From positions 15,249-79,248 of the IMG/VR virus record IMGVR_UViG_3300005077_000007: a DNA stretch of 64,000 nt; one strand, 5' to 3'. The translations under genes were made by a program, and so were the position numbers. The DNA comes from a virus. The notes beneath the pieces are model-generated. The model worked only from the letters and a program-made list of their open reading frames with translations, was not told the origin of the DNA and did no database searches. Below, piece by piece: positions 5,795 through 62,674 of the stretch (position 1 is the first letter of the stretch; each line of letters opens with the position of its first letter).

Positions 5795-8700
5795 TATTTG
5801 ACCTCCGCGATGCGTACCCCATGTGAAAAAATCTCTCCGCCAACGTGGTTTCCTTCAATCTGACTACTTAGACGAACAAGCTTTGCGGAGGTCGGCGTCT
5901 GTGAATCAAAGACAAGCACGAAGGCTTGATAAATTTTGGGAAACAATAGATTATAAAAAACATCAACTTGCCATGACTCTATGTTCTCATATTGTAACTC
6001 GTATGATTTAACAATTTGCCCAATATGCTTAACCCTGCTAAGGCCAGTTTGCGAACGTTCAATATTTGTCTCCGCATTAATAGAGAATTTCCATCCAGAA
6101 TTAAATCTGTCTCGTGGAAGTTCCCCATTTTCAGTGACGACGTAAAATGGAATATGCCTTCCGATGATAATTTTTCCTATTTTATGATATCCCTCTGCGG
6201 TATTATAAATATTAGGAATCGTCAGACGAATCCATTGACAGAATTCCTTCTCTGTTCCGGCAAGTTCTGGTTGTGGATATCCATAGTCGTCACGATTTTC
6301 GCCATTACTGCCATTATTGAACATAACGTCGGCGAAAATTGCATACTCAACTGTTTGTCCAGCCACCGCTGTTAGATCAACTGGATCTCCATCGTAATAA
6401 ATCATATTCTTAGTATTGCTGATAATTTTACGGATTTCACAATTGGCTGGAGAGGAGATGCCATTCATCGACTTAGCAATAAGAACGTAATATGCGTTTC
6501 CGCTATCCCCATACTGATTTGGAATAAGCGTTAATGATGGATCATGGACAACGTTATTCCATGTCCCACTAGATGCAGCAGCGGCATTTGTATAGAAAAT
6601 TCCTTGATGGATAATTGCGCTCATCTCGAATTCTATGTATTGACTTTTATCCAATGGAAACGTTGTGCCACGATACTCTGGTACACTCACGGCCCATCGG
6701 GCATATGGAAAGTTTGTTCCAATGAGTGAAATTGCGTTGACGTTATATACCGACCCTTCTCCATCAGCACGCTTATTCCATAAGAACTCTATATTTGCAG
6801 AATTGGTTATAAATTTTGTATCGCTATCGTTACGCCAAAAATACTGAGGGCTCTCCTCCAGAACGGCTTGCCTAGCGGAATATTGACTCTCTGTGCCAAT
6901 ATCGTACGAATCGCCTATAACTGACATACCAGACCAAATTACAGCCAGACTACCGATACCGATTGATTGCATTTTCTCGGGAATAATTGGCATATCGATA
7001 AATACTGATCCATCCGCTGGTACATCAACTAGTATCCTGCTTACCGCTACTCCTGGTGTACCGGCTGTGGAAACAAAAAAAGCATAGATTGGGCAATTGC
7101 CATACTGAGACATGGTTAATGTTCTTCGCATTTGTGTATCCGTCCAATCTGGCGCATTGCTGGTAAACCGATACATAGGAATTGGTATGTTTGGCGAAGT
7201 AGAAAGATACCACGACTGAAGAGCTAATGTCGTAGCCAGTATTCGATCATACGTTGCAAGAAATACCGTCCCCTCTTGAGCTTCGACGAGTGACGAACGC
7301 GGAACGGCATCTGAAATTGAGTTATCCGTTGGTATGTCGGCGTTGAACGCAATTGACTCGAATGTTCCTGTTGTTTCGTCAGCCTCTTTTCCACCAATCT
7401 GAATAAATGGAGGAAAGACTCGATAAAAATCTTTTACGATATCATTGCTAAAATTTCTATTATTTTCTATCTTCCATACCTCGACTCTCCCGAACGTCAG
7501 ATTTGATACTGATAACCAAATGCTTCCGTCGCTCATTGATGATAAGTATGGATAAGCGCGTAGGATTGGATTATATTGCACAATTTTATCATCCGCCATG
7601 ATAACCGTTTCTTCATTGAGAATCACAAGTGAGGAGATCATATTGAGTTCGGTTTTTGTTTCTTTCCACGTCACCCCAAGATCATCTGAGACATAAAGGG
7701 TGCTTCCATGCCCGGCGTATATTTGAGCAATGGCATTGTCCTGAGTACCGGACCACGCGATAGCAACCGAAGCATACCGATGCGCAGAAATAGTTCCCTC
7801 TATTCGTCTAGGCAGCTTGGTGATAATTTTAGCTATATCACGAACGCTCGGTGGGGTCGGTCGTCCCGTGGCGGATATAAGATGCGTGACGCTACTGTTT
7901 GGAGTCCATTCGATGAAATTCCCTAACTCATCTATTGCATAAACAAGCGTGCTGCTAGCCCGATCGCAATCTGTTATCATTAGTCCAGTTCCGACCGGAT
8001 GAACTGAGAAATAAAATCCATTTTCAAGGTTATATTTTTGATTATTGCCACGACGCGCGAATGTCGCATTCTTGATTCGACAAAATCTTGGTACATTCTC
8101 CCATCCACTCTCTGCGGCATATTGCGCCCTGTCGCGGCCTGAATTTGATGGGAATTCAGTATTGAGTGCGATGTGTCCAGCAACTAACAGTTCCGCTTGC
8201 TCGATGCCCTGTGTCAAAAAACATCCTGTCATGAGGTTTGAATCTTGGAATCTAAATCCATAGACAATTTCTGGCGAATTAGGGTTCGTATTGATATTTG
8301 TGCTTTTCTGCGCATTGTCTACCCAGCAAATTTTATCTTTTCCAATGAGATACAACATGATGCGTTCGCCAAAGATCTGGTATGTATCTCCCGATGAATG
8401 ATTAACGAGTATTTTTCTTATTTCACCCATTGACGCAATGAGGGCGTTCGTAAGGCTATACGGAAAGGCATTATCGCTATTGCGCTGAAAATCTTCAGTA
8501 GATACATAAAAACCATCAACGGTACCATTAGGGGCATTGATGCTTTGAGTAGCGCCTTCCTTTTGAATATAATTTTGAATTGACATATTTGCTGGAGCAT
8601 TCACGAGATACCAGGATTCTCCCATATCTATAGATCGCAATAGAATTGCCCCGCCCTTAGGTACCCATCCGGCTGCATACATAATATATTCTTCGGCATC

Positions 8701-30958: not shown

Positions 30959-33493
30959 TTACGTTCGTCTACGCGCTAGCCTTATTATTTGTCCTCCTAT
31001 CTCATCGTAATCAGGTATGCAACTCGTTGCCCCAAGAACGGCCATCGAAAATGCGATCAATGTATCAATTTTTTTATTCTTATTATCTTTAATGAAACGC
31101 CTTCCACGACCTGGGACTTCTTTAATGGACACCATCATGGCCTCATTCCTTAAATCATCATCTGGAATAATGATAATATTCCCCTCTGATAACTTATCAA
31201 GAAAATTTTCCGTCATCTTAATGGTATTCGGTTGCGTCTGTGGATAAGGAACCATTGGCAACCCCCTTTCTCGTAGCCTCTGAGCCGATGACTCCATTTG
31301 CCACGGATCATAATATACAATTGCCAAAAAGAATTGCTTATTGAGTTCGAGTAGATATTTCTCTATTGTACGCTCGAAGTTGAGTGGATCTTCTTTTGTA
31401 GGTTGCCAGACTTGATATGGACCTTGCCAAATTTTGCCATGACGGCGGAAAGCTGAGACGACTGCGGCTCGGTCTTTCACTAGCGAAGCGTCGATACCAA
31501 CAGCTAATGAAAGATCTCGTGAGGGCGAAATCGGCGCAAAGTATTGATTTTCTTTTGCGAAATCCACACATCGATCCCAAAAGCGCATATCCATCCCTTC
31601 TTCTGCTTCCACCCACTCATTTCGATGAATTCTACGAAATGCGCTTAGTCGAAAACCGGGTTGATTAATCTGTTCATGGTAATATTTTGCATCTTGCCAG
31701 GGCATCCTAGGCTCGTGATCCCAATAGCAATTTCGCACTAAAACATTTCCAGAGAAAAAATTATGAGCTTCTTCGACATCAACACAATACGCCCACCTTG
31801 CGGGGCCGTCATGCGGTGGTGCCCCATGTTCGATTATGGCCCTCGCGGCGTCCTGGGTAGATTTTCCGAGGTTCCAGCTATTTTCATCAAATTCGGGAGC
31901 TTTGTCGGCAAGCTTATATCTCATTGATTGTGGCACAAGGTGACCAATTTTTTGTGATAAATAAGTTAAGCCAATTGGTGATATATGAATTATACACCCA
32001 CTCCCGCCGTAACGTTTATATTCTCTTACGTGACACTTTATCCCATATTCAACTAATTTTTGACATAAGTATTCACAATCAATTCTACTAAAAGACTGCG
32101 TATAAATCACCGCAGCCCCGTGGTTTGACCTTGATCCATCATCTAAATACCAGGCCGCAAGAAGCTCCGGGGACATATATCGAGATACGAGATCGTATGG
32201 AACTATTTTCTTTTTATTCGAATAAAACATTTCTCTTAAATTCAACAACGCCTGGCTCGATCGAGATTCAAAATTTATCGCACCATCCATGCTCCTAATC
32301 CACCTTGATCCGTTCTGCCCAATACGGTCCAGGGCGATGGTTTTTAAAAATATCCACTCGATTTGCCCCTTGTGGTGTATCATCCTCAATTCGGTACGAT
32401 AAGCTGACTCACTTGTCAAGTGAGCATCCCCCAATAGTGTTCCAACAATAAGTGCCATTTGTTTCTCATTTGGAGCATCTTTTTTCGTTAAGATTAAGTC
32501 ACCGTTACGTAAATTATCCGCACGAACTTTTCCGTTTGGAGTAAAAATTTCGTGATCGTTCGTAACCCATGTTCCAGTTCGTCTATATCGACCATTCTCG
32601 TAACCAACTCTCATGTAATATCGATTACCCAACTTAGTCCTATACCACCCCACTATGGGTCTTTCCTCGAATTTTCCATCAATCATGCATATGACCTTTT
32701 TATCTATTTTCTCATTTACGACCTTGCTTATGCGCATGCGTGTACCATCAGCAAATTGCACTGATGATCTTGGGTGTAGGCAAATCGAGTCACCACTGGC
32801 ATAAACTGGCAATTGCGTCAATTCTCCAGTTTCCGTGTTTTTATATTTTCCTAGATCAATGAGATTTTCTGGACGAACTATTCGCTTATATATATCTTCC
32901 AATAGCTCCGACTCCCCAACGAAGCCAGCGTACGTTGTAATAACCCGCATTGCGTTTTCCCTGGTAGGTGGTGGAGTCATTTCATCAAATAATCGTCTCG
33001 CCCCCTCACTCGTGAAGCCCCACAACTCATCAAACAACGAGAGGTTTGGATTTGACCCTGCCGCTCCGGCGTAGTCGCTACTAATCGCCTGAACCATCGT
33101 ACCATCTTTCAATATAATATGCTTGATATGAACATCGCTACAAGCTTCCAATAAAACCGGATTACTCTCTATGCATCTCTTGAGATCACGATACCCGCGC
33201 GATTGCGATTGCTCCAGATCGTTCGCAAGGTAATAAATCTCCCCGTTTCTTCCACAAATTCCAGAAAACGCAAACCAGGCTGCGATCATTGCCCCTATTG
33301 ATGTTTTTCCACTTTTTTTCCCACACGACCATACAAACTGCCGATAGGGGAGAATTCCATTTTTGTTCGGGGTAAGTGCGTGCTCCAGGATGGCCTTCTG
33401 GTGTGGCATTAGCTGGACTAATTTGCCATTTGGTAATATGAATATTCTTTCTAAGAATGGGACGATGGGGACTATCTTCTTCTCTTGACTCAT
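30959..33493 (-). CDS. terL: Terminase large subunit containing an intein
   Basis: Walker A GKKSGKT, Walker B SLFDE, nuclease IGIDAS and KKIDTLIA; position at the head of the morphogenesis operon. Confidence 0.92.
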   Translation of the reverse strand: MSQEKKIVPIVPFLERIFILPNGKLVQLMPHQKAILEHALTPNKNGILPYRQFVWSCGKKSGKTSIGAMIAAWFAFSGICGRNGEIYYLANDLEQSQSRGYRDLKRCIESNPVLLEACSDVHIKHIILKDGTMVQAISSDYAGAAGSNPNLSLFDELWGFTSEGARRLFDEMTPPPTRENAMRVITTYAGFVGESELLEDIYKRIVRPENLIDLGKYKNTETGELTQLPVYASGDSICLHPRSSVQFADGTRMRISKVVNEKIDKKVICMIDGKFEERPIVGWYRTKLGNRYYMRVGYENGRYRRTGTWVTNDHEIFTPNGKVRADNLRNGDLILTKKDAPNEKQMALIVGTLLGDAHLTSESAYRTELRMIHHKGQIEWIFLKTIALDRIGQNGSRWIRSMDGAINFESRSSQALLNLREMFYSNKKKIVPYDLVSRYMSPELLAAWYLDDGSRSNHGAAVIYTQSFSRIDCEYLCQKLVEYGIKCHVREYKRYGGSGCIIHISPIGLTYLSQKIGHLVPQSMRYKLADKAPEFDENSWNLGKSTQDAARAIIEHGAPPHDGPARWAYCVDVEEAHNFFSGNVLVRNCYWDHEPRMPWQDAKYYHEQINQPGFRLSAFRRIHRNEWVEAEEGMDMRFWDRCVDFAKENQYFAPISPSRDLSLAVGIDASLVKDRAAVVSAFRRHGKIWQGPYQVWQPTKEDPLNFERTIEKYLLELNKQFFLAIVYYDPWQMESSAQRLRERGLPMVPYPQTQPNTIKMTENFLDKLSEGNIIIIPDDDLRNEAMMVSIKEVPGRGRRFIKDNKNKKIDTLIAFSMAVLGATSCIPDYDEIGGQIIRLARRRT
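31730..32782 (-). mobile_element. Intein (351 aa) with LAGLIDADG homing endonuclease in TerL
   Basis: Starts CLHPRSSV, ends HNFFSGNVLVRN followed by Cys(+1); GTLLGDAH and LAAWYLDDG motifs. Confidence 0.9.
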
Positions 33494-33520
33494 AACACGT
33501 TCCCTGCTATAATAGCCTTG

Positions 33521-33703
33521 ATGCAAATAAATCTCGACGTATCCTGCCCCGAGTGCCGTACCGGAAAAGTCGAAGCAATTGGACGAGCATTCATTAAGGA
33601 TGAATTATCACTTATCCTTTGGAGATGTCAAGTATGTCAGCACGAGTTTTCTCTCGGAATAAACTACTCTTCAGTGATAGTGAAGGAGGAGATCGTTCAT
33701 TAA
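33521..33703 (+). CDS. Small Cys4 zinc-ribbon protein
   Basis: CPEC-x23-CQVC; overlaps the 5' end of the primase. Confidence 0.5.
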   Translation: MQINLDVSCPECRTGKVEAIGRAFIKDELSLILWRCQVCQHEFSLGINYSSVIVKEEIVH

Positions 33704-43357: not shown

Positions 43358-45322
43358 ATGCAGTTACCAACGGTCGTATCGTTATTTTCTGGTATTGGGG
43401 CCTTTGACCTTGCGGCACAAAGGGCTGGGTTCAAAACGGTTGCGTTTTCGGAGATATGCCCATTTGCAATTCGAGTATTCAAGCGTCATTGGCCCAATGC
43501 TATTGGGTTAGGCGATATTCGGCTCCTGCACGGCCAAGCGATTTGTGAAATAGCGGGTCGTGTCGATGTGATGACGGCGGGATTTCCGTGCTTTACCGCT
43601 GGGCATCTCGTCCTGACGGAACGAGGATACGCACCGATAGAATCGCTCTCGGTCGGGGACCGAGTTGTCACGCATCGTGGTCGATTACGACCAATTGTCC
43701 GTGTTGGTTCGGCGATTAAGCCTGTTGGGCTGCTGAAAGGTAGTGGAATCCGGGTCGGGCATACGGTCACGCTTGACCATCCATATCTGGCTGTCGATTG
43801 GCGTATGCAGAGCACGCGGAGACAAAACAAGGCTATACGCATCGAACACGTCGGAAATGAGCAGTGGGTAGCGGCGTCCGAAATGGTGGGAAAGCAGTGG
43901 TGCGCCCTTACCGAGTATCAACCCGTCGAAGCAGGTAGCCCAACGCCACGGCTTACGCCTCGGCAGGCAATGTTACTTGCGGGGATGTACTTGGGCGATG
44001 GCTGGGTGGGTGGGTATCGAACGAAACGGAAAAAGGTCGTCCTTCTGGCCCTCAATGACCGCAAGTATGAATTCTTTCTCGCACACTTCCCCGGAGTGCC
44101 GCACTTCCGAACGAACGACCGTACCTGTCGAAAAACTATTCTTTGCGATACCAACCTGGCGGAATGGTTGATCGACCAGTTTGGTAAGGGGGCGGCAAAT
44201 AAGCGCATTCCCGCATGGGTGCTCGGGCACCCTGACCGCGATGCCCTGATGCAGGGATACGTCGCTACGGATGGATGCTTCAAGGGCAAGGGCGCGGGTG
44301 TGTCGATTACGACGATTTCTTCGGCGCTTGCTTTTGGGTTCTGTGATCTCTCGGTATCGCTCGGTTTCGTCGCGTCATGTAACGTGCATAACGTAGGGCC
44401 GATGAAGGTGATCGAGGGCCGAACGGTGAACCAACGTCCATTTTGGACGGCACTTGCCATTCCACGCTGGAAGTCGATCAGATCGCGCGTGTATCACGGG
44501 AAACTCTTGCGGGGCATTAGGTCATTCACGCCGTGCGGCGAACGCACGGTTTATAACATCGAGGTCGCCGACGATCATAGCTATGTTGTCCAGGGCGCTA
44601 TTGTTCATAACTGTCAAGATATATCTGTGGCCGGAAAACGATTAGGGTTGGATGGTGGGAATCGTAGTGTATTATTCTACGAGATTATGCGTCTCGTAAG
44701 GGAGATGACAACATATGGGCAGCCGCCAAGGTTCCTTGTTCTCGAAAATGTCCCAGCCCTTCTCTTCAGCGGAGGGGGGAAAGACTTCAGTAGCATTATC
44801 AACTCGATACGAAAATGCGGGGCGCTTGACATTGCGTGGAGAGTTCTGGACGGTCGATATGCCGGAGTACCTCAACAAAGACGACGACTGTTCATTGTCG
44901 CAGATTTTAGAAAAGAATGTGCCGGAAAAGTTCTTTTTGACCAAAATCAGGTGTTTGGGGATCATGAAAGCCATACAAATAAGAAAAAAATCTCCACCGA
45001 AGATCGTATGGAGCGCCTTGTTGAACAAGACGGAACAGTGACGACTTTATGGCCGCGAATAGCAAAAACCTGCACGCGCCGCGACTATAAAGGCCCTCGC
45101 AACGAGGAAATGCAGTGTACGATTGTCATGCACCACGTCAATGACGACAAAGAATGGTATACGATTCGTCGTTTAACGCCAACAGAATTCGCTCGACTCA
45201 TGGGATTTCCGGATGATTGGATCACGGAAGAGAGTGATACAAAAATGTATCAATTATATGGAAACTCTGCCGTTGTTCCATTATTAGAGCAAATCTTTAC
45301 CAGAATTCATATGGAATTATAA
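43358..45322 (+). CDS. C5 cytosine DNA methyltransferase containing an intein
   Basis: Motif I LFSGIG, IV GFP|CQD, VI LENV, VIII QQRRR, X LYGNS. Confidence 0.92.
   Translation: MQLPTVVSLFSGIGAFDLAAQRAGFKTVAFSEICPFAIRVFKRHWPNAIGLGDIRLLHGQAICEIAGRVDVMTAGFPCFTAGHLVLTERGYAPIESLSVGDRVVTHRGRLRPIVRVGSAIKPVGLLKGSGIRVGHTVTLDHPYLAVDWRMQSTRRQNKAIRIEHVGNEQWVAASEMVGKQWCALTEYQPVEAGSPTPRLTPRQAMLLAGMYLGDGWVGGYRTKRKKVVLLALNDRKYEFFLAHFPGVPHFRTNDRTCRKTILCDTNLAEWLIDQFGKGAANKRIPAWVLGHPDRDALMQGYVATDGCFKGKGAGVSITTISSALAFGFCDLSVSLGFVASCNVHNVGPMKVIEGRTVNQRPFWTALAIPRWKSIRSRVYHGKLLRGIRSFTPCGERTVYNIEVADDHSYVVQGAIVHNCQDISVAGKRLGLDGGNRSVLFYEIMRLVREMTTYGQPPRFLVLENVPALLFSGGGKDFSSIINSIRKCGALDIAWRVLDGRYAGVPQQRRRLFIVADFRKECAGKVLFDQNQVFGDHESHTNKKKISTEDRMERLVEQDGTVTTLWPRIAKTCTRRDYKGPRNEEMQCTIVMHHVNDDKEWYTIRRLTPTEFARLMGFPDDWITEESDTKMYQLYGNSAVVPLLEQIFTRIHMEL
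43589..44611 (+). mobile_element. Intein (341 aa) with LAGLIDADG homing endonuclease at the MTase catalytic PC motif
   Basis: Starts CFTAGHLV, ends YNIEVADDHSYVVQGAIVHN then CQD; GMYLGDG and GYVATDG motifs; visibly GC-richer than its flanks. Confidence 0.92.
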
Positions 45323-54710: not shown

Positions 54711-55017
54711 GGCTGTAGAATACGGAGGGGGGTTTCTAGGGATTGGAAAAGCCCTCCCCAATGCTTTAGTCATAGGAGAGTTCATGTCCCGCCAAAGACT
54801 CAGTATACAAAAAGTCCTCAAATACCGACAGCAATACCCCACCCTTGATATCGTAGGCATCCTTGTCAGAGGAAACACAGGAGGACGAAAACATCTCTGT
54901 CTCCGTGATGGACGTATCGTCTATCTCTATCCAGATGGCACCTTTGAACATACCCCCTATACATGGGCAGAGGGATTATTCGATACAGACATACGGGAGA
55001 TGTTTCCATGGGGATAA
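54697..55017 (+). CDS. Hypothetical protein
   Basis: Last ORF before the non-coding control region. Confidence 0.45.
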   Translation: MFTTKAVEYGGGFLGIGKALPNALVIGEFMSRQRLSIQKVLKYRQQYPTLDIVGILVRGNTGGRKHLCLRDGRIVYLYPDGTFEHTPYTWAEGLFDTDIREMFPWG

Positions 55018-55149
55018 ATATACGATATTCCTGCCCATAGATATACAATATTGCTGGATTGTCCATTCGTATCGTACCGCATATTGTTGTTTTCTAGGAA
55101 TTGGAAAAGAGCTTGTGATTTTATGATTTACTCGTAAATGGGTGGGGTG

Positions 55150-55260
55150 CCCCCCTACAGGGGGGTAGCCCAGCAGGTCGCATAGCACTTCGCATATCAG
55201 GTGCCAGGTCCAGGGCACCGCAGATCGCACATCAGGTCGCAGAGCAGATCGCAGATCACT
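55150..55260. repeat. C6-TACA-G6 hairpin followed by CAGRTCGCA direct repeats
   Basis: Perfect copies at 55174, 55221, 55233, 55245 plus degenerate ones; GTGCC/GGCAC hairpin at 55201-55218. Confidence 0.8.
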
Positions 55261-55276
55261 AGCAAGTAGCGTGCCA
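55261..55276 (-). promoter_or_regulatory. Sigma-54 (-24/-12) promoter, leftward
   Basis: TGGCACG-CTAC-TTGCT, full consensus. Confidence 0.7.
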
Positions 55277-55343
55277 AAGCCTTACGCCACGGAAACATTA
55301 GGTGGCAAAACTGTAACGCTTCGTCAATTCCATGACACCGGCG

Positions 55344-55369
55344 TAAGTTACTGGAATCATTGGGGAAAT
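55344..55369 (+). promoter_or_regulatory. IHF-like box shared with 59834
   Basis: TAAGTTACTGGAATCATTGGGGAAAT. Confidence 0.45.
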
Positions 55370-55457
55370 GCCCAAATCGTCAATCGAATGACGCGCCGGC
55401 GCGGTATTTTTTTGTCGGTACCCTTGGAATCGTGGGGAAACGTCCGTCCTCCGAGTA

Positions 55458-55473
55458 TGGCACGCCGCTTGCA
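55458..55473 (+). promoter_or_regulatory. Sigma-54 (-24/-12) promoter, rightward
   Basis: TGGCACG-CCGC-TTGCA, about 80 nt before the ATG at 55556. Confidence 0.8.
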
Positions 55474-55555
55474 CCTAAGACTGGTATGCACCCACTTCAG
55501 AGCGAAATTCCTAATTTTGGGAATTCGAAACGTGGGTAGGAAGGGAATCGAAACG

Positions 55556-55960
55556 ATGGCACGTCCCAAGGGTAAGGATATGGGTATCACTAAGACTGTC
55601 AGTCTTGGTGGCAACCGTACAGTACAATTGCCCGTTATCCTAGTAACGGATAACGGCAATATGACGTTCAAATTGACGCATGAAGACGTTACGGTGGCAA
55701 GCGGCAATCCGGAGGTTTTGCGTGCGCTATTCGAAGATGCGTGGAGGGAACGTGGAAACCGTACCTATCGTGAGCGAATTGCGGTTATCCGTTCCTCGAA
55801 ACTCGAAGATTCCGCAATCAGCCTGAACGTTCGCTATGTCGTGGTCAACGCGGCCGAAACGGCAAACGGGATTTTCGTGAAGTATGCCGATGGCAAGGTG
55901 GCGCTGTACTCCGGTGAACTGCTTCCGGTGGGATTCGAGAATCTTCCGGTGTTGGCGTAG
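55556..55960 (+). CDS. Hypothetical protein, first gene of the early-like region
   Basis: SD AGGAAGGG before MARPKGK; followed by a terminator. Confidence 0.6.
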   Translation: MARPKGKDMGITKTVSLGGNRTVQLPVILVTDNGNMTFKLTHEDVTVASGNPEVLRALFEDAWRERGNRTYRERIAVIRSSKLEDSAISLNVRYVVVNAAETANGIFVKYADGKVALYSGELLPVGFENLPVLA

Positions 55961-55965
55961 CAACG

Positions 55966-55996
55966 AAAAGGGATCTAGTGCGATTAGATCCCTTTT
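55966..55996 (+). terminator. Rho-independent terminator (bidirectional form)
   Basis: AAAAGGGATCTA / TAGATCCCTTTT. Confidence 0.85.
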
Positions 55997-56115
55997 CCCA
56001 TGCGCCAAATGATTCAATACGCCAATACTAAGGCTGGAATCCGAAATGGATTCCGGCCTTTTGGCGTTTCTGCGGCCTGGTATCCTGGCAATCGGCCGTT
56101 TGCCACGGATGATTC

Positions 56116-56153
56116 GAACGGAACGGAACGGACGGAACGGACGGACGGAACGG
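56116..56153 (+). repeat. Tandem GAACG/GACG microsatellite (about 8 units)
   Basis: gaacg gaacg gaacg gacg gaacg gacg gacg gaacg. Confidence 0.8.
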
Positions 56154-56233
56154 AAAGCGTAGAGTTTGCGGCGGAATCCGCAGATTGTATGGTTTCCGCA
56201 ATGTCGCGGAACCGAAACGGAGAAAGGGTCGAT

Positions 56234-56440
56234 ATGGAAACTTCGCAGGTTTTGGCCCAACGTCTTGCTGAGAAGTATTTCAAGGACCGCGCCCGGAAGC
56301 TGATTGCTTCCGTGCACAAGACGTCAATCGAGTTGTTCCCCGATTCGAATGATTGGAAGCTTCGAAACGAATTCATGGACGGGGTATTCAATACCCTGAG
56401 CCATGAATTCGGGTTCCCGCGCCAGAATCCGCAAATCTAG
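56234..56440 (+). CDS. Small hypothetical protein
   Basis: SD AAGGG; followed by a terminator. Confidence 0.5.
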   Translation: METSQVLAQRLAEKYFKDRARKLIASVHKTSIELFPDSNDWKLRNEFMDGVFNTLSHEFGFPRQNPQI

Positions 56441-56450
56441 CTAGGGAATA

Positions 56451-56480
56451 GGGGAATCCGGCGGTTCGGGTTCCTCTTTC
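56451..56480 (+). terminator. Rho-independent terminator
   Basis: GGGGAATCCG / CGGGTTCCTC then TTTC. Confidence 0.6.
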
Positions 56481-56958
56481 CTTCGTTTCCAATGGCTAGA
56501 ATGTTCCATAGCACGGCAATCAAGGCTGGGTTCCTTTTGGAATCTGGCCTTTTGCCGTTTAACCTAGAAGGAATCGATGCTTCCAATAGTAACGATTGTC
56601 GCCAGTGTGACGTTTGTTTCGATTCTGAGTTGGCTAACGTGGCCGAAAGCCACGCGAACGGAACGGCTACGGAAGGCCGTTCAAAAGGGAATGAAGAATG
56701 TGTAAGGAACGGAACACGGTTCGATGGTCATTCGTTGCGAATGATGGTTCCCACGATGGTAAGGGAACACTTGCCCAAGCTATCTTCGCTTATCTTGAAT
56801 ACCTCTCAAAAGATTTGCAACAATTTCAGGTGTGGTGCGGCAAATGCGGCGAATCCCTCGTCTAACTGGATTTGCCGTGGTTTTGGTGACCGCAATCATC
56901 GTGATTGTTTGCGGCCTAGTTGTTGTAACATTCCCACAAGTGAAGGGACAAAGATAAA

Positions 56959-57120
56959 ATGACAGTCAGTGAACGCTTGGATTGTCTGTCCGCTTACGAA
57001 AAGAGAATCAAAGGCCGCCTGAAAAAGGCCAAGCGGCCTTTTGAGCGCCGCCTTTTGAGGGAAAAGATCGAAACGCTTCGTCAGGAGCGTTTCTTCATTT
57101 CCAAGGGCCTGATTTTCTAG
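56959..57120 (+). CDS. Small basic protein (53 aa, not in the ORF track)
   Basis: MTVSERLDCL...; SD AAGGG. Confidence 0.4.
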   Translation: MTVSERLDCLSAYEKRIKGRLKKAKRPFERRLLREKIETLRQERFFISKGLIF

Positions 57121-57204
57121 ATTGGTGATGGCTCCGGTATAGTGCGATTATACCGGAGTAAACCGCAATCGTGGTCCAAAGCCCACGGGAAAGGAAAGAA
57201 TCGA

Positions 57205-57438
57205 ATGGCCGAATCGAAAGATCGTTGGAAGGAATGGATGGATTACTCTCAGGGGTTCTCCGTCATTTACCCGGCGACGGCCGAATTGTTGGATACGTTC
57301 TGCGAATTGTATCCAAACGATTCACAGGCAGATCGTTACTCGAAAATGACGGATCTGCTCAGTCAGGCTGAAAACGACGGATTGATTTCGCGGAATGAAA
57401 AGAACATCATCCGCGAGCAAATCGCCGAATACCTCTAG
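57205..57438 (+). CDS. Small hypothetical protein
   Basis: SD AAGGA before MAESK. Confidence 0.55.
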   Translation: MAESKDRWKEWMDYSQGFSVIYPATAELLDTFCELYPNDSQADRYSKMTDLLSQAENDGLISRNEKNIIREQIAEYL

Positions 57439-57446
57439 GAGGAAAA

Positions 57447-57617
57447 ATGTTCGAGGGTTTAAGTGGTTATTGGGTTCCACCGGCGAAACCCGTAAATGGG
57501 GTTTGCACGGCGGGAATCCTAATCCTTCCGTTCGTCCATGCCAATCGGGCAGAAGCAATGCGGGTTTTCGTGATCGAAGATCGAAACGGAAACTGGCAGA
57601 AAGTAGCAGTGAATTGA
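57447..57617 (+). CDS. Small hypothetical protein (56 aa, not in the ORF track)
   Basis: SD AGGAGG; TGATG coupling to the next gene. Confidence 0.55.
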   Translation: MFEGLSGYWVPPAKPVNGVCTAGILILPFVHANRAEAMRVFVIEDRNGNWQKVAVN

Positions 57618-57820
57618 TGGAAAACGACGGATTCGTTTTGTCGTTTGCTTCATTTGGATATTCCAAATGGGGTTTCGAAAGCTTCGAGGAAGCGAAAGCC
57701 TACGGAGTAAAGGCCGGGTTTTCGTTTTCCTTATGGTCCGCAGACCACGCGGACAACGCGGACGTTTCGTTGAAATTGGTTGGGACGTGGCATCCAATCA
57801 ATGGTTGGAGCCATGAGTAA
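57617..57820 (+). CDS. Small hypothetical protein
   Basis: Coupled start. Confidence 0.5.
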   Translation: MENDGFVLSFASFGYSKWGFESFEEAKAYGVKAGFSFSLWSADHADNADVSLKLVGTWHPINGWSHE

Positions 57821-58418
57821 TCATCCATTCGTAACCACGAAGTTTACGGTTGACCAAATCTGCGATATTCTCGCAGACAAGGTTTCTACAATCAAAAATT
57901 CGCGGCTCGAACATTCTTATTACGGCCGAATGGAATACGTCAAGGAATTCGGTTGGGCGATCCCCGATGTTGATTCAATTTTTGGCATCGCGGAGTTTGC
58001 AACGAATGGTTTTGTGGAAGATACCACAATTCTTGAAATCAATGCCGGTAAGGGATTGTGGGCGTATCTTCTACAACTTGCGCTTGTTCCAGTCATTCCA
58101 ACGGATTCCAATCCGTGGAAAGACTCGTTTACTCGCATCGAAAAGATGGACGCGGCAAGCGCCGTTCATCGTTTCAAGCCAAAGATCCTCATGACGATTT
58201 GGCCGTCGTATGACGAAAGTTATGCGACGGTCGCGCTGTATGATTTTCTTCGTTTCGGCGGGGAAAAGCTAATTTATGTCGGCGAATCAGAAGGTGGATG
58301 CACCGCTGATCGTCGATTCCACGAAATCCTCGATAAGGATTTTACCGTAGAGCGGGTTATTTATAATCCCTGCTTCAGCGGGATCTACGATTCCGTTACG
58401 CTCTACGAAAGGAAATGA
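57813..58418 (+). CDS. Class I SAM-dependent methyltransferase-like protein
   Basis: LEINAGKGLWA motif I, TD, IWP, LIYVGESEGGCT. Confidence 0.65.
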   Translation: MSNHPFVTTKFTVDQICDILADKVSTIKNSRLEHSYYGRMEYVKEFGWAIPDVDSIFGIAEFATNGFVEDTTILEINAGKGLWAYLLQLALVPVIPTDSNPWKDSFTRIEKMDAASAVHRFKPKILMTIWPSYDESYATVALYDFLRFGGEKLIYVGESEGGCTADRRFHEILDKDFTVERVIYNPCFSGIYDSVTLYERK

Positions 58419-58424
58419 GGAAAA

Positions 58425-58694
58425 ATGCTAAGGTATAAATTCAAACCTCGCCCAAGAGATACCTGGTTTATCCGGTATCTTTTCGTGCCTTTCATGAATA
58501 CCCTGCCAATTCGATACTGGCAGGGGTTCTTCTATCGTGGGAATTGGGCTGGTAGATTGCAACAGAAACTCTTTCGACGCGGAATGTATTTCATTCTTGC
58601 AGCGGAAGAGGCTCGTTTCATTCGGAAGGAAACCAGGCCGTCGAATACCGTGATTCGGATGGTCTATTACATCACAATGCCTTACGGAAGTTAG
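58425..58694 (+). CDS. Hypothetical protein
   Basis: SD GAGG. Confidence 0.45.
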   Translation: MLRYKFKPRPRDTWFIRYLFVPFMNTLPIRYWQGFFYRGNWAGRLQQKLFRRGMYFILAAEEARFIRKETRPSNTVIRMVYYITMPYGS

Positions 58695-58704
58695 GGGAAA
58701 ATTC

Positions 58705-58935
58705 ATGAAGATTTGCGGCTGTTACCCTGATGAAATTTGCGATTGCGTCGAACGGCGCGATTGCGAAAAGGCCGGAACGATGGGGCATAAATTCTGTGGC
58801 CCATGCGTCCATAATCCGCAATTGCCCAAATTCATGTGTGGCGATTGCTGCAAAACGGATAACCTTATGGAAGTGTTATTCCATGAGGAGGTTATGGCCG
58901 AACTTAGGGAAAAGTTTCCCGAGGATTTGGAATAA
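58705..58935 (+). CDS. Cys-rich small protein
   Basis: Ten Cys residues; coupled stop and start. Confidence 0.5.
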   Translation: MKICGCYPDEICDCVERRDCEKAGTMGHKFCGPCVHNPQLPKFMCGDCCKTDNLMEVLFHEEVMAELREKFPEDLE

Positions 58936-59381
58936 TGCAATTCCAAGATTGGAAAACTGCGAGAAATTATATTCTCGCTGGACATGGAACGATAACCGTT
59001 TGTTCCAAAAAGACTGGACAGCGGTTTACGTTCAAATGCGGGATGCCGAAAGAAAAAACGACATTCTCGCCTATCTTTGTTAAGGTTTTGACCGGAACGG
59101 ATAATGAATCCGATTATTCGTTCCTTGGAACCTTGTTTCCCGAAACGCCAACCTATCCAGAATCAACATTTCGGCTTTCCCCTAAGTCTCGAATCTCGAA
59201 AGATTCCCCTTCAGCCGTCGCGGCGGTTTGGTTTTTTACCGCTGTGGCGAAAGATAAAGATATTCTCGAATCCGCCACCGTATATCATTCCGGTCAGTGC
59301 GGCCGTTGCGGCCGTAAACTTACTGTACCGGAATCAATCGAATCCGGAATTGGGCCGGAGTGTGCGAAAAAGCAAAACTAA
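58935..59381 (+). CDS. DUF6011-like zinc-finger protein
   Basis: CGRCGRKLTVPESIESGIGPEC. Confidence 0.7.
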   Translation: MQFQDWKTARNYILAGHGTITVCSKKTGQRFTFKCGMPKEKTTFSPIFVKVLTGTDNESDYSFLGTLFPETPTYPESTFRLSPKSRISKDSPSAVAAVWFFTAVAKDKDILESATVYHSGQCGRCGRKLTVPESIESGIGPECAKKQN

Positions 59382-59391
59382 GGAGCATACT

Positions 59392-59613
59392 ATGCACGCA
59401 ACTGATTTTGAAGCTGTAATTTATAACGGAAATATATACTGTACGGAATGTTTGCCAATTGGCATTTACGTTGACGATGACGATGTAATTCCCATTTTCT
59501 CTTGTATGGAATGGAGCCAGCCCGGCGTTATCTGCGATACGTGCGGATATTTGCACGATTATATGATGCTGCTAGATTCGGAATCTCATTCGGTAGAAAT
59601 GGAGGATGAATAA
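59392..59613 (+). CDS. Small Cys4 protein
   Basis: CTEC..CDTC; SD AAGGAG. Confidence 0.55.
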   Translation: MHATDFEAVIYNGNIYCTECLPIGIYVDDDDVIPIFSCMEWSQPGVICDTCGYLHDYMMLLDSESHSVEMEDE

Positions 59614-59676
59614 ACAACAACGATTGGAAGGCGTAATTGATTCTAGTCATGACTGACCTGGGTAAAAAACAATTTG

Positions 59677-59713
59677 GGGTGGCGCATGGGAAACCATGCG
59701 CTATCCCATTTGT
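59677..59713 (+). terminator. Terminator hairpin with GAAA tetraloop
   Basis: GGGTGGCGCATGG-GAAA-CCATGCGCTATCC then ATTTGTT. Confidence 0.7.
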
Positions 59714-59833
59714 TACGAAACATGATTTCGTAAACGCTAATTGCGAAAGCGACGGAAGGTGTTTCGGCGGAAACTGGACGTTGCGTCAAGATATTGCCGA
59801 TCGTCAATATACTGACAGAGCGCCCCGAATCCC

Positions 59834-59859
59834 TAAGTTATTGAAATTGTTAGGGAAAT
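59834..59859 (+). promoter_or_regulatory. IHF-like box shared with 55344
   Basis: TAAGTTATTGAAATTGTTAGGGAAAT; TAA-N4-TTGA is close to the reverse IHF consensus. Confidence 0.5.
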
Positions 59860-59956
59860 TCCGCAGACCGTGTGGCCGGCGGAAAATTGGCGTTAAAAAG
59901 TTGACGTTCGCAGACATTTCGGCGAGAAAACGGCCGATTTGCAAGCGGATATCATG

Positions 59957-59972
59957 TGGCACGCTACTTGCA
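59957..59972 (+). promoter_or_regulatory. Sigma-54 (-24/-12) promoter
   Basis: TGGCACG-CTAC-TTGCA, about 77 nt before the ATG at 60049. Confidence 0.8.
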
Positions 59973-60048
59973 TACTAGGATGGTTCGGCATTGTTGCGTC
60001 AAATGCTTGGGATTTGTTCCCAACGAAACGAAAGGTCAAAATAAGGGA

Positions 60049-61827
60049 ATGAAAACGCAAAAAGCCATCGGTACTAACCGGTTAAAGCAAAGTTTGCAGT
60101 ACGCCACTATGTGGGCGCCGTGCGCTGTCCCCGATTTCGTTACATTCGACTCGCCGAGCGACGAAATCGCGCAAACGTTTTTCGTCGATACCCAAAGTTC
60201 CGGGGATAAAGTTTTTGGGCGTCCATGCCCAAAGAACCCTAGGCATGGATTCGTCGAATCCCGTGTATTGAATACATGGGAAGAGGCAGTTTCGTTGCTG
60301 GAAGAAACTCTCGCCGCCGACCCAGACGGCGAGGTTATGTTAATTTCAGCAATAGAATCAAAGTTTTCAGCCGTAGTCTCTGATCGGATTACGGTTGGAA
60401 TAAACAATGACGGCGCGACAGCGGGTTATGGAAACCCGCTGGAAATTTATACAAATGGCGTAGCCCGTTCTCCGTGGTTTGATGACGTTGGCATCCCGGA
60501 AGGGAACGCCGCTTTTCTGGAATTTGTTTATGGCCGCAAGAATCGTTACGGTTCGCAAACGCGAACATATGCGGTGCAATGCCGAGCCGGTGAGCATCTG
60601 CCGCGCAAACCTGATGCTATCTTTGAGGATATGGTTATCACGCAAATCCTCGAACCATTGCCAAAGGAAAACCCTGAAGCAATGCCCGAGTGGGAACGGC
60701 GTATGCAATCGCTTCCAAGGGATAAAACGGGAATTGCCGTTTACGTCGAGGAAGGTTCCCTTTCATCCCATGCGGCCGTACAGGCAATTAAGCATGGGGT
60801 TCGAGCCGTTTTCACAACTCGTAAGCCAAAAATCGGCGAGGCGATTGTGAAAAATGAAGAAGAATCGGTAGACCTACACAACGATATTATGCGTGGAATG
60901 GGATATTCCACGATAACGTCGGAATCGGACGGGTATCTATTCGATATCCGTGCCGGATTGATTATAGCACTTATGGGTGCTCACAACGCGAATTATATTA
61001 CGAAAACCCCAGAGGGTGCTTTTCTTTTCGGGGTTGGCGTAATGACTACGATTCGGGCGGCGGCGACCGCCTGTTTCGGTGAATTTCGACATTGGAAACG
61101 AATCGCCCGTACCGATTTTGCCAATATGGCGGGTCGGTCCCGAGATTCGATTTTCGATAGGGTTAGGCCCTGGGAAATCACGCTTTTGGTTACCGCATTA
61201 CGGCAGGCTGGGAAGGCCTTTCATTCTAAAGGCTGGAATCAGTCGTATGGTGGCAAGGCATGGTATAATTGTTACCTTGCTACCGTTGATTTGGCGGCAG
61301 CAACGAGCGAGTATCAGGATTCGCCTACTACGGCAAATCTCGCAAAGGTTGTCGGAAAATTGCACATTCTGTTCAATACTTGCCACAATGGCGGGCCGGT
61401 ATTGACAAAGTTCCTTGACGTTACTCTTTTCGATTACTTCGCAAAGGGCAACGTGAAAGCTAACGCCAACGCCATTGCGGCGATTTTCGTTTTGCTTGAC
61501 AGGCTCGATTACTTTCGTCCCGAATCACACCTTCGATGCGAAGCGGTTCGGAAGTATTGGCGGGTTGAGCAATCGTTGAAGTATCGGGTTCGGTTGTCGT
61601 GGACGTATAATTCCGACAAGGATAAGTACGACTACGCCGCAGTTGTATACGCGAAATTCGGCGCTACGATTGTTAAGTCGTATATACTGTGGAATAACGC
61701 CGCCCTTATCGCGGCGTTACATAAGATGCCAAATCCGTCAAAAGGAAAGATCGTGAAGAATAAATATGGGGTTTTGATTTTTGGGAATGAAATCATCGGA
61801 ACAGTAAAAGGATTATTTGGAGAATGA
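60049..61827 (+). CDS. Dikinase-like protein: ATP-grasp-like N-terminus, phosphohistidine swivel domain, unknown C-terminal domain
   Basis: QKAIG..VPDF and FGRPCP..GFVESR resemble the PPDK/PEPS N-terminus; GSLSSHAA..AIKHGV is the PEP-utiliser mobile motif (His codon 60769). Confidence 0.65.
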   Translation: MKTQKAIGTNRLKQSLQYATMWAPCAVPDFVTFDSPSDEIAQTFFVDTQSSGDKVFGRPCPKNPRHGFVESRVLNTWEEAVSLLEETLAADPDGEVMLISAIESKFSAVVSDRITVGINNDGATAGYGNPLEIYTNGVARSPWFDDVGIPEGNAAFLEFVYGRKNRYGSQTRTYAVQCRAGEHLPRKPDAIFEDMVITQILEPLPKENPEAMPEWERRMQSLPRDKTGIAVYVEEGSLSSHAAVQAIKHGVRAVFTTRKPKIGEAIVKNEEESVDLHNDIMRGMGYSTITSESDGYLFDIRAGLIIALMGAHNANYITKTPEGAFLFGVGVMTTIRAAATACFGEFRHWKRIARTDFANMAGRSRDSIFDRVRPWEITLLVTALRQAGKAFHSKGWNQSYGGKAWYNCYLATVDLAAATSEYQDSPTTANLAKVVGKLHILFNTCHNGGPVLTKFLDVTLFDYFAKGNVKANANAIAAIFVLLDRLDYFRPESHLRCEAVRKYWRVEQSLKYRVRLSWTYNSDKDKYDYAAVVYAKFGATIVKSYILWNNAALIAALHKMPNPSKGKIVKNKYGVLIFGNEIIGTVKGLFGE

Positions 61828-62441
61828 CCTTGATTCCAGAAGTAGAGGCGAATGAAACGATAATACGGCAAATTATGAGAGAGAGATTTGATCCGAAGCC
61901 GTATATTCCGTTTTGCAACCATCTACCGAGGATGCTATTCACGGTAAACGGAACGGATTTGTATATCGGACACCGGACGGAATCGGTATTCGATAACTTT
62001 AACCTCAATCTCATTATTGATTGCAGTAATGAGAAGAGGTATGATCCTGACGATGGATTCTTTGGTGGAAACTTTGCGTTTCCAAGGATGGAAGAATACG
62101 TGATTCCACGTCCAAAGGTTTTGACAATGGCGTGGCACGATTTTCATGTGCCACCGATAGGTATAAAATTCTGGTATGCCCTGGTAAAAGAAATTAAAGG
62201 TCAATCCGTCGCAATTGTTTGCAGTGGCGGGCACGGGCGAAGCGGAACGGCTCTCGCCTGTGTTCTTGCGGCAATGGGAATTCGAAATCCAGTTCAACTT
62301 ATCCGTAACCACTACTGCAAAAAGGCGGTAGAAACGACGGCGCAAGAAAATTATGTAAACAACGTATTGAAATTTGCACCGAAAAAGGCAAGACCGACGC
62401 TCGTGATACATGAGATTCAAAACACGCAACGTCTACCATAA
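61824..62441 (+). CDS. Protein-tyrosine/dual-specificity phosphatase (CX5R)
   Basis: WHDFHVP acid loop, VCSGGHGRSGT, VETTAQ. Confidence 0.85.
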   Translation: MTLIPEVEANETIIRQIMRERFDPKPYIPFCNHLPRMLFTVNGTDLYIGHRTESVFDNFNLNLIIDCSNEKRYDPDDGFFGGNFAFPRMEEYVIPRPKVLTMAWHDFHVPPIGIKFWYALVKEIKGQSVAIVCSGGHGRSGTALACVLAAMGIRNPVQLIRNHYCKKAVETTAQENYVNNVLKFAPKKARPTLVIHEIQNTQRLP

Positions 62442-62601
62442 AAATGAGAAAGGGGATATCATGCGTTACGCATACCGTACTATATGATATGGGCGAAGGT
62501 GGCAATGAGGTTCGCCGCACAGCGGGATTGGGCTAATACCCCATAGTTGCTGATTGCGTAAGTCGCCCAATATTCTATATATCATCCGCCAAAAGCAGAT
62601 G

Positions 62602-62623
62602 GGGCTGGCCGAAAGGCCAGCTT
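62602..62623 (+). terminator. GNRA hairpin, possible terminator
   Basis: GGCTGGCC-GAAA-GGCCAGCT; weak U tract. Confidence 0.45.
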
Positions 62624-62674
62624 AATGCTCCAATCGAATATCCAAAGGATCGATTGGCGGGAAAGGGGAATAGA

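Follow-up and report, generated by a model that had tools for sequence, protein, structure and literature searches.

Probable sigma-54 promoters with putative flagellar-type enhancer boxes in the genome of an uncultured phage

Three consensus -24/-12 elements and their control regions

We analysed a window of 64,000 nucleotides (nt), i.e., bases 15249-79248 of IMG/VR virus record IMGVR_UViG_3300005077_000007, which holds three short elements (P1, P2 and P3, Table 1) that match the -24/-12 promoter consensus of sigma-54 (RpoN). The full record is 108,596 bp long, has direct terminal repeats at its ends, and is organized as a leftward structural arm, with the major head, portal and terminase genes, abutting a rightward arm of ~50 kb whose first gene is a primase (at 33619). 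P1 and P2 diverge from a common control region, and P2 and P3 are each followed by a rightward transcription unit. Phage promoters are usually regarded as sigma-70-type or as being read by phage polymerases or phage sigma factors. A sigma-54 promoter stays silent until an activator that uses ATP acts on it, so that a phage relying on such promoters leaves the decision with a signalling protein of its host.

The pattern TGGCACGNNNNTTGC (TGGCACG-N4-TTGC) has exactly three matches in the window, against a mean of 0.01 in shuffled sequences (none of 100 shuffles reached three), and the remainder of the genome adds no further copy. In a weighted scan, P1, P2 and P3 each reached the maximum score of 22/22, the next-best candidate scoring 19.5. 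All three cores also carry the W after TTGC, and so match TGGCACG-N4-TTGCW in full, with GG at -24 and GC at -12. They are intergenic and pointed at a downstream gene or putative RNA, P2 ending 84 nt before the ATG at 55556 and P3 78 nt before the ATG at 60049. The original prediction, made from the letters of the window, had listed three exact intergenic sites, with the plus-strand ones ~80 nt before an ATG, and is borne out on both counts, save that its first coordinate was one base off (55262, not 55261). Its reading of the sites also stands: given the perfect cores, their placement and the leader distances, P1, P2 and P3 are very probably sigma-54 promoters.

One could alternatively see in the motif the operator of a phage DNA-binding protein, or an artefact of chance or duplication that merely looks sigma-54-like. 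Duplication could indeed explain part of the pattern, as P1 and P3 share the same 15 bases throughout and an alignment of the three promoter regions revealed sequence upstream of P2 and P3 that is homologous in blocks. The exact 15-mer (TGGCACGCTACTTGC) was found in 57 IMG/VR contigs, which is about chance level by estimate, and none of these is related to the phage. However, a match to 11 positions of a universal sigma-54 consensus, three times over where 0.01 is expected, is hard to reconcile with such an origin. The same consensus moreover recurs in unrelated phages of 30-67% GC without a common neighbouring regulator gene, and therefore fits a universal host factor rather than a phage-specific protein. 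Overall, we regard an operator or artefact as very improbable.

Neither an activator nor a sigma-54 was identified in the phage: a six-frame hidden Markov model search of the whole genome returned neither the ATPase domain of sigma-54 activators (PF00158) nor the DNA-binding domain of sigma-54 (Sigma54_DBD) at E<=1, and a GAFTGA-like motif was absent from all six frames. The lack of an activator gene, originally claimed for the window and left to be sought in the rest of the genome, thus holds for the complete record. Expression from these promoters would therefore likely be gated by a host enhancer-binding protein.

A second motif, TCGTCAAT-N4-TGAC, is present in four copies (at most one mismatch) against 0.35 expected. 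Every copy precedes a core, and the rest of the genome has none. Relative to the predicted transcription start sites (TSSs), the four boxes span ~-78 to -190. Between the divergent P1 and P2, each promoter has one box at ~-80 to -100 and another at ~-135 to -155, and the core of box B (CGTCA-N6-TGACG) forms a perfect palindrome. The control regions of P2 and P3 share, in addition, a 26-nt box whose two copies are identical at 21 of 26 bases (best of 200 shuffles, 19), with no third copy in the genome. This box, reported earlier at 114 and 123 bp from the two plus-strand cores, is real. Its proposed likeness to a site for the integration host factor IHF finds no support, since WATCAANNNNTTR (at most one mismatch) matches the P3 copy only and not the P2 copy, at a background of 0.34 matches per 210 nt. 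Likewise, the CTTACGCC/GGCGTAAG dyad described between the divergent promoters exists (55281-88 / 55340-47), but an 8-nt inverted repeat in ~180 bp is, by a rough estimate, not beyond chance. The 26-nt box and core combined had no match when searched in IMG/VR.

Two further elements frame these control regions. Between the enhancer and P2, a GC palindrome with a T7 tract behind it would act as a small terminator-like or bend element insulating P2 from upstream read-through, and the strong intrinsic terminator located just before the P3 enhancer would both close the P2 unit and insulate P3. At P3, A-tracts sit between enhancer and core. The P2 and P3 regions have the layout of an insulated, enhancer-dependent promoter, and, if true, each would amount to a compact, naturally insulated sigma-54 promoter cassette.

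This layout also bears on another possible role, in which the sites bind sigma-54 holoenzyme without being mainly promoters, i.e., as a sink that draws sigma-54 away from operons for host stress or defence, or as closed-complex roadblocks or insulators. Sigma-54 holoenzyme makes stable silent closed complexes, and in many uncultured phages such sites stand in dense palindromic arrays that lack recognisable enhancers or activators (see last section), both of which would suit a sink or roadblock. Against this, only three sites occur in this phage, with an enhancer-like module at the classical distance and an upstream hairpin at each site, and a gene at leader distance for two of them, which is the layout of a working promoter. 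We thus consider a sink or roadblock improbable here.

Table 1. Positions of the promoter elements, enhancer boxes, transcription units and related features (window coordinates, except for the last row)
Feature	Position	Strand	Remarks
P1, perfect -24/-12 element	55262..55276	-	leftward; predicted TSS ~55250
P1b, weaker sigma-54-like element TGGCAC-N5-ATGC	55191..55206	-	score 19/22; tandem, 70 nt downstream of P1
P2, perfect -24/-12 element	55458..55472	+	rightward; predicted TSS ~55484
P3, perfect -24/-12 element	59957..59971	+	predicted TSS ~59983
Putative enhancer box A, TCGTCAAT-N4-TGAC, FleQ-box-like	55321..55336	+	~-155 from P2 TSS, ~-78 from P1 TSS
Putative enhancer box B, TCGTCAAT-N4-TGAC	55377..55392	+	~-99 from P2, ~-134 from P1
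Head-to-head pair of putative enhancer boxes	59785-59800 and 59801-59816	- (one mismatch) and +	32-bp imperfect palindrome; ~-190 and ~-174 from P3 TSS
Shared 26-nt box, copy 1	55344..55369	+	between boxes A and B; 114 bp before -24 element
Shared 26-nt box, copy 2	59834..59859	+	123 bp before -24 element; followed by GCCGGCGG and A-tracts
GC palindrome, then T7 tract	55393..55414	+	between enhancer and P2; read directly from sequence
Strong intrinsic terminator	59675..59708	+	15-bp stem, T-rich tail; ends P2 unit, just before P3 enhancer
P2 transcription unit	55556..59613	+	about nine small genes: 134, 146, 156, 53, 98, 141, 212, 117 and 169 amino acids (aa)
P3 unit	60049..62441	+	592-aa protein and overlapping 205-aa PTP/DSP phosphatase (PF22784)
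Region downstream of P1	55143..55258	-	five 12-nt repeats (YTGCGAYCTG-type), then G/C hairpin 55143-55172
Palindromic double-element loci	L113-L191, e.g. L121 375-501, L152 1505-1630, L163 231-676, L186		IMG/VR loci

The putative enhancer boxes and their flagellar counterparts

Broadly, the boxes resemble the binding site of FleQ, a flagellar master regulator of Pseudomonas: the GTCAAT and TGAC arms match the FleQ consensus in three of the phage boxes and the fourth carries one mismatch in GTCAAT, for a consensus that is itself contested. The FleQ box proposed for P. aeruginosa is GTCaNTAAAtTGAC (Baraquet and Harwood, 2016, as quoted in PMC6120874), and the P. putida consensus quoted by the same source is GTCAaAAAAtTGAC.

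Bacterial counterparts were sought in metagenomes with the pattern CGTCAAT-N4-TGAC, then 115-145 nt, then TGGCACG-N4-TTGC, which retrieved 57 bacterial loci from 35 sequence families with GC contents of 0.33-0.76. Flagellar genes were detected by tblastn in at least 32 of these 57 loci, and many of the remainder are fragments of 1-3 kb. The operons behind box and core include motA-fliM, fliL-fliM and flgBCD, and Pfam assigned the promoter-proximal genes to MotA, FliM, FliL, the rod and hook proteins FlgB/C/D, and a GGDEF protein beside flgBCD. A few loci head non-flagellar genes (pilin, RnfC, MraW). One locus with a fliL promoter has two activator ATPases encoded upstream, as in FleQ/FleR or FlrA/FlrC systems. 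In bacteria with sigma-54-driven flagella, perhaps one in five sigma-54 promoters belongs to a flagellar operon, so that the flagellar majority among the scan loci is an enrichment, although not a rigorously quantified one. The free positions of the box are A/T-rich in the metagenome loci, with T preferred before TGAC as in a GTCAAT..ATTGAC palindrome, and the box-to-core spans of the phage (151 and 170 nt) fall within the two commonest span ranges of the bacterial loci.

The likeness to flagellar promoters of the FleQ/FlrA type thus lies in a GTCAAT...TGAC box upstream of TGGCACG-N4-TTGC, with the same box and spacing found before flagellar operons within the 35 metagenomic families, whereas here the arrangement is phage-borne, precedes non-flagellar genes and has a divergent box centre. 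Recent capture of a host flagellar promoter is ruled out: the phage regions share no extended similarity with the scan loci, and the resemblance is therefore one of motif-level mimicry. Among viruses, the pattern of box and core was found in only two other contigs.

A 46.4-kb viral contig (L288/L291) and two short metagenome contigs (L271 and L258) likewise have a consensus sigma-54 core preceded by several GTCAAT-N2-4-(A)TTGAC boxes. These boxes may represent further flagellar-type enhancers outside flagellar operons.

It is thus tempting to propose that host sigma-54 RNA polymerase would read P1, P2 and P3 as enhancer-dependent promoters, for which the four TCGTCAAT-N4-TGAC boxes would be the enhancers, two of them placed around the 26-nt box between P1 and P2 and two head-to-head above P3. 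These boxes would imitate the enhancer that precedes bacterial flagellar sigma-54 operons and would most likely be bound by a FleQ/FlrA-type master activator of the host. Once bound, the activator would loop over the A/T-tract region and open the closed complex, while the terminator-like hairpins upstream would screen P2 and P3 from read-through. The operon of genes without family matches (ORFans) behind P2, the 592-aa enzyme and phosphatase behind P3, and a leftward repeat RNA from P1 would then be made only in motile cells with low cyclic di-GMP (c-di-GMP). We put the probability of this reading as a whole, in which host sigma-54 and a FleQ/FlrA-type activator fire P1-P3 and so tie their units to the motile state of the host, at about 0.5. 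Taken alone, the flagellar type of the activator is slightly favoured by the boxes and their metagenomic counterparts, and both binding of the boxes by such an activator and their modulation by c-di-GMP are proposals from sequence. That a host pathway gates phage genes had been suggested before, with envelope stress or nitrogen status as examples; the host enhancer-binding protein remains likely in the lack of a phage activator, but what the boxes imply is motility and c-di-GMP rather than either of those signals.

Several points weigh against this reading, some of which would equally suit another binder. Among the phage boxes, the four positions at the centre vary and do not match the FleQ consensus, and the shared 26-nt box, conserved as it is, stays unexplained. 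The count of 57 loci comes with no scrambled-box control, and since real sigma-54 promoters are abundant in metagenomes, some of these loci may hold a genuine sigma-54 promoter beside which the box occurs by chance. The strict pattern had zero matches in a sample of 401 Pseudomonadota genomes, the arrangement being rare per genome and the pattern too strict. The flagellar loci of the scan mix operons that are FleQ-dependent in Pseudomonas with others that are FleR-dependent there, and the loci therefore do not settle which flagellar activator binds. A search for sequencing runs that contain this DNA listed none, and the TSSs are predicted; both rpoN and a FleQ/FlrA-type regulator are presumed in the host. 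Finally, the FleQ consensus is disputed as a predictor and performs poorly genome-wide according to PMC6120874, which also places several FleQ sites of P. aeruginosa close to or downstream of the promoter, not at ~-150.

The varying box centre and the unexplained 26-nt box would both fit real sigma-54 promoters whose GTCAAT-N4-TGAC boxes or 26-nt box are bound by some other enhancer-binding protein of the host, or by a phage factor that is unlike any known activator and so went unrecognised. The promoter evidence serves this alternative equally well, the pilin, RnfC and MraW genes behind a few metagenome matches are non-flagellar, and a regulator could hide among the neighbouring phage genes, which are nearly all ORFans. 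However, most loci with the same box and spacing are flagellar, and the phage encodes neither an AAA+ activator domain nor a GAFTGA motif; we hold a non-flagellar binder to be unlikely, if the most serious of the competing explanations.

Should the flagellar reading be correct, the enhancer would name a concrete candidate for the host protein to which the decision is handed, namely the flagellar master regulator. Phage gene expression would then hang on cell motility, with a bearing on biofilm versus planktonic dynamics and on flagellotropic infection. More tentatively, the phage might use the motility and c-di-GMP state of its host, through flagellar activator and sigma-54, as a conditional switch, for instance as a flagellum-dependent phage tailoring its takeover to motile hosts. 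A host-modifying enzyme with its phosphatase, the ORFan operon and a regulatory RNA would on this view be restricted to flagellated cells, and no phage regulon would have been placed within the flagellar hierarchy of bacteria before.

Genes and candidate RNAs behind the promoters

The original prediction had spoken of an early region driven by sigma-54, which goes too far. Two internal units do lie behind these promoters, but they make up only ~4.1 kb and at least 2.4 kb of the ~50-kb arm, next to one leftward non-coding stretch. Almost all genes of the P2 unit lack family matches. The unit contains a match to the Twister-P5 ribozyme (57124-57186, plus strand, 48.9 bits against a gathering score of 37.6), which overlaps the called start of the 98-aa open reading frame (ORF), and a second, sub-threshold Twister-P5 match (62594-62636, plus strand, 31.5 bits) comes directly behind the phosphatase gene in the P3 unit. 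Both putative sigma-54-driven transcripts may be processed by self-cleaving ribozymes. The leaders of the two units also share a GGGAAT(T)CGAAACG-type motif, present twice in the P2 leader (55518-55555) and once, in degenerate form, in the P3 leader (60020-60040), which may control both units at the level of translation or RNA.

The 592-aa protein of the P3 unit had no Pfam match, and a profile of its family had no match among PDB sequences. A conserved SH-A..GIPV motif gives the family a swivel-His-like feature; the label “dikinase-like”, considered for it, was set aside as unverified since the profile found nothing among PDB sequences. Among 5.8 billion proteins, identity to even its best homologues does not exceed 32%. 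We inspected the gene neighbours of homologues at six loci (L061, L065, L067-L070): in L061, L065 and L069 the homologue adjoins a PTP-SAK-type phosphatase, in unrelated phages homologues stand among the first genes of the rightward arm, after the divergent junction, and in T7-like genomes the homologue is ahead of the phage RNA polymerase gene. The placement of this family together with a phosphatase recalls host-takeover kinases.

Downstream of P1, no credible ORF was found. The 12-nt repeats of this region (55168-55258) present TCGCA every 12 nt on the plus strand and could be protein-binding iterons or RNA motifs, and the hairpin that follows them lacks a T tail. The P1 product is a candidate non-coding RNA that would run antisense into a 77-aa gene (54784-55017); it had no Rfam match, and its fold is no better than that of shuffled sequences (z-score -0.46).

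Sigma-54 sites in other phages and the standing of this genome

To place these promoters among other uncultured phages, we turned to 37 IMG/VR loci that encode a homologue of the 592-aa protein and together hold 24 high-scoring sigma-54 sites versus 3.6 in shuffled sequences. The sites are clustered at the divergent junction in about 7 of the 37 contigs, and no such cluster was found in four loci from bacterial genomes (possibly prophages), so that a specific link between sigma-54 sites and the 592-aa family was rejected. The densest example is a 50.9-kb phage (L069, the same contig as L083) with eight sigma-54-type sites in both orientations, three of them perfect, within 400 bp (5938-6335), at the junction of packaging arm and rightward arm and followed by a G-rich tandem repeat. 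In such arrays the sites often form back-to-back or face-to-face palindromes, whose divergent starts would be ~18 bp apart. At least 120 viral contigs of 30-67% GC, where a rough estimate made before the scan had given ~0.2, carry the palindromic double element GCAA-N4-CRTGCCA-N3-12-TGGCAYG-N4-TTGC, often as tandem arrays with a period of ~45 nt and usually at divergent junctions. Five array-bearing records, including two complete genomes, encode no activator domain. A shared regulator gene beside the arrays was looked for and rejected, the recurrent neighbours being terminase, M15 peptidase and GP88, and FleQ-like boxes (GTCA-N6-TGAC) are not enriched near them.

The promoters described here resemble these arrays in having consensus -24/-12 elements in control regions without an activator gene. 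They differ in that the arrays are dense, often palindromic, located at the main divergent junction and without box enrichment, whereas here three isolated promoters come with flagellar-type enhancers. The flagellar-type enhancer is thus a specific feature of this phage compared with other phage sigma-54 sites, and sets it apart from the commoner, unexplained enhancer-less arrays. A more distant parallel comes from cyanophages, whose promoters carry host NtcA or PhoB boxes and are sigma-70-type with a classical activator. There too, phage genes are wired to a host regulator through mimicry of its binding site, but the signal is nutrient status, whereas here it would be motility, read through enhancer-dependent sigma-54.

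Our full-text literature search found no consensus sigma-54 promoter sets in phages apart from those of Pseudomonas phage YuA, which are said to have been described in 2008 by Ceyssens and colleagues (J Bacteriol 190:1429). Development of YuA is strictly dependent on host sigma-54 according to PMC5053324, and a preprint reports a sigma-54-like TSS in YuA obtained by ONT-cappable-seq. The original prediction that phages offer little precedent has to be tempered in view of the sigma-54 dependence reported for YuA and of the clusters of sites that are common in uncultured phages. The YuA record (NC_010116) lists three -24/-12 promoters, all in the structural (late) region, none of which matches at 18.5/22 or above in promoter orientation in our weighted scan. 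Like the present phage, YuA is tailed, has -24/-12 promoters and encodes no activator; unlike its weak late-region sites, those found here are perfect, lie in the non-structural arm and come with a recognisable enhancer. The use of host sigma-54 by a phage is hence already known from YuA, and what is new is the TCGTCAAT-N4-TGAC flagellar-type enhancer.

The two phages are unrelated: no nucleotide match to YuA/M6 (Yuavirus) was found in the collection of isolated phages, against which a megablast of 8 kb of the genome returned zero matches overall. The portal protein matches only unrelated phages, at 24-29% identity, and neither the capsid protein nor the 592-aa protein has close relatives in IMG/VR. 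Atlas taxa of the dockerin-like and GC-rich proteins gave no indication of the host, and the use of Shine-Dalgarno motifs speaks weakly against a Bacteroidota host.

Elsewhere in the window, two genes appear to be interrupted. In the large terminase gene (30959-33526, minus strand, 855 aa), a LAGLIDADG homing-endonuclease-like insert (residues 354-503) separates the terminase matches and points to an intein. The matches of a DNA methyltransferase gene (43358-45322, plus strand) are likewise divided, between residues 3-78 and 419-653, and the part in between, similar to a stretch of anaerobic ribonucleotide reductase, may be another insertion.

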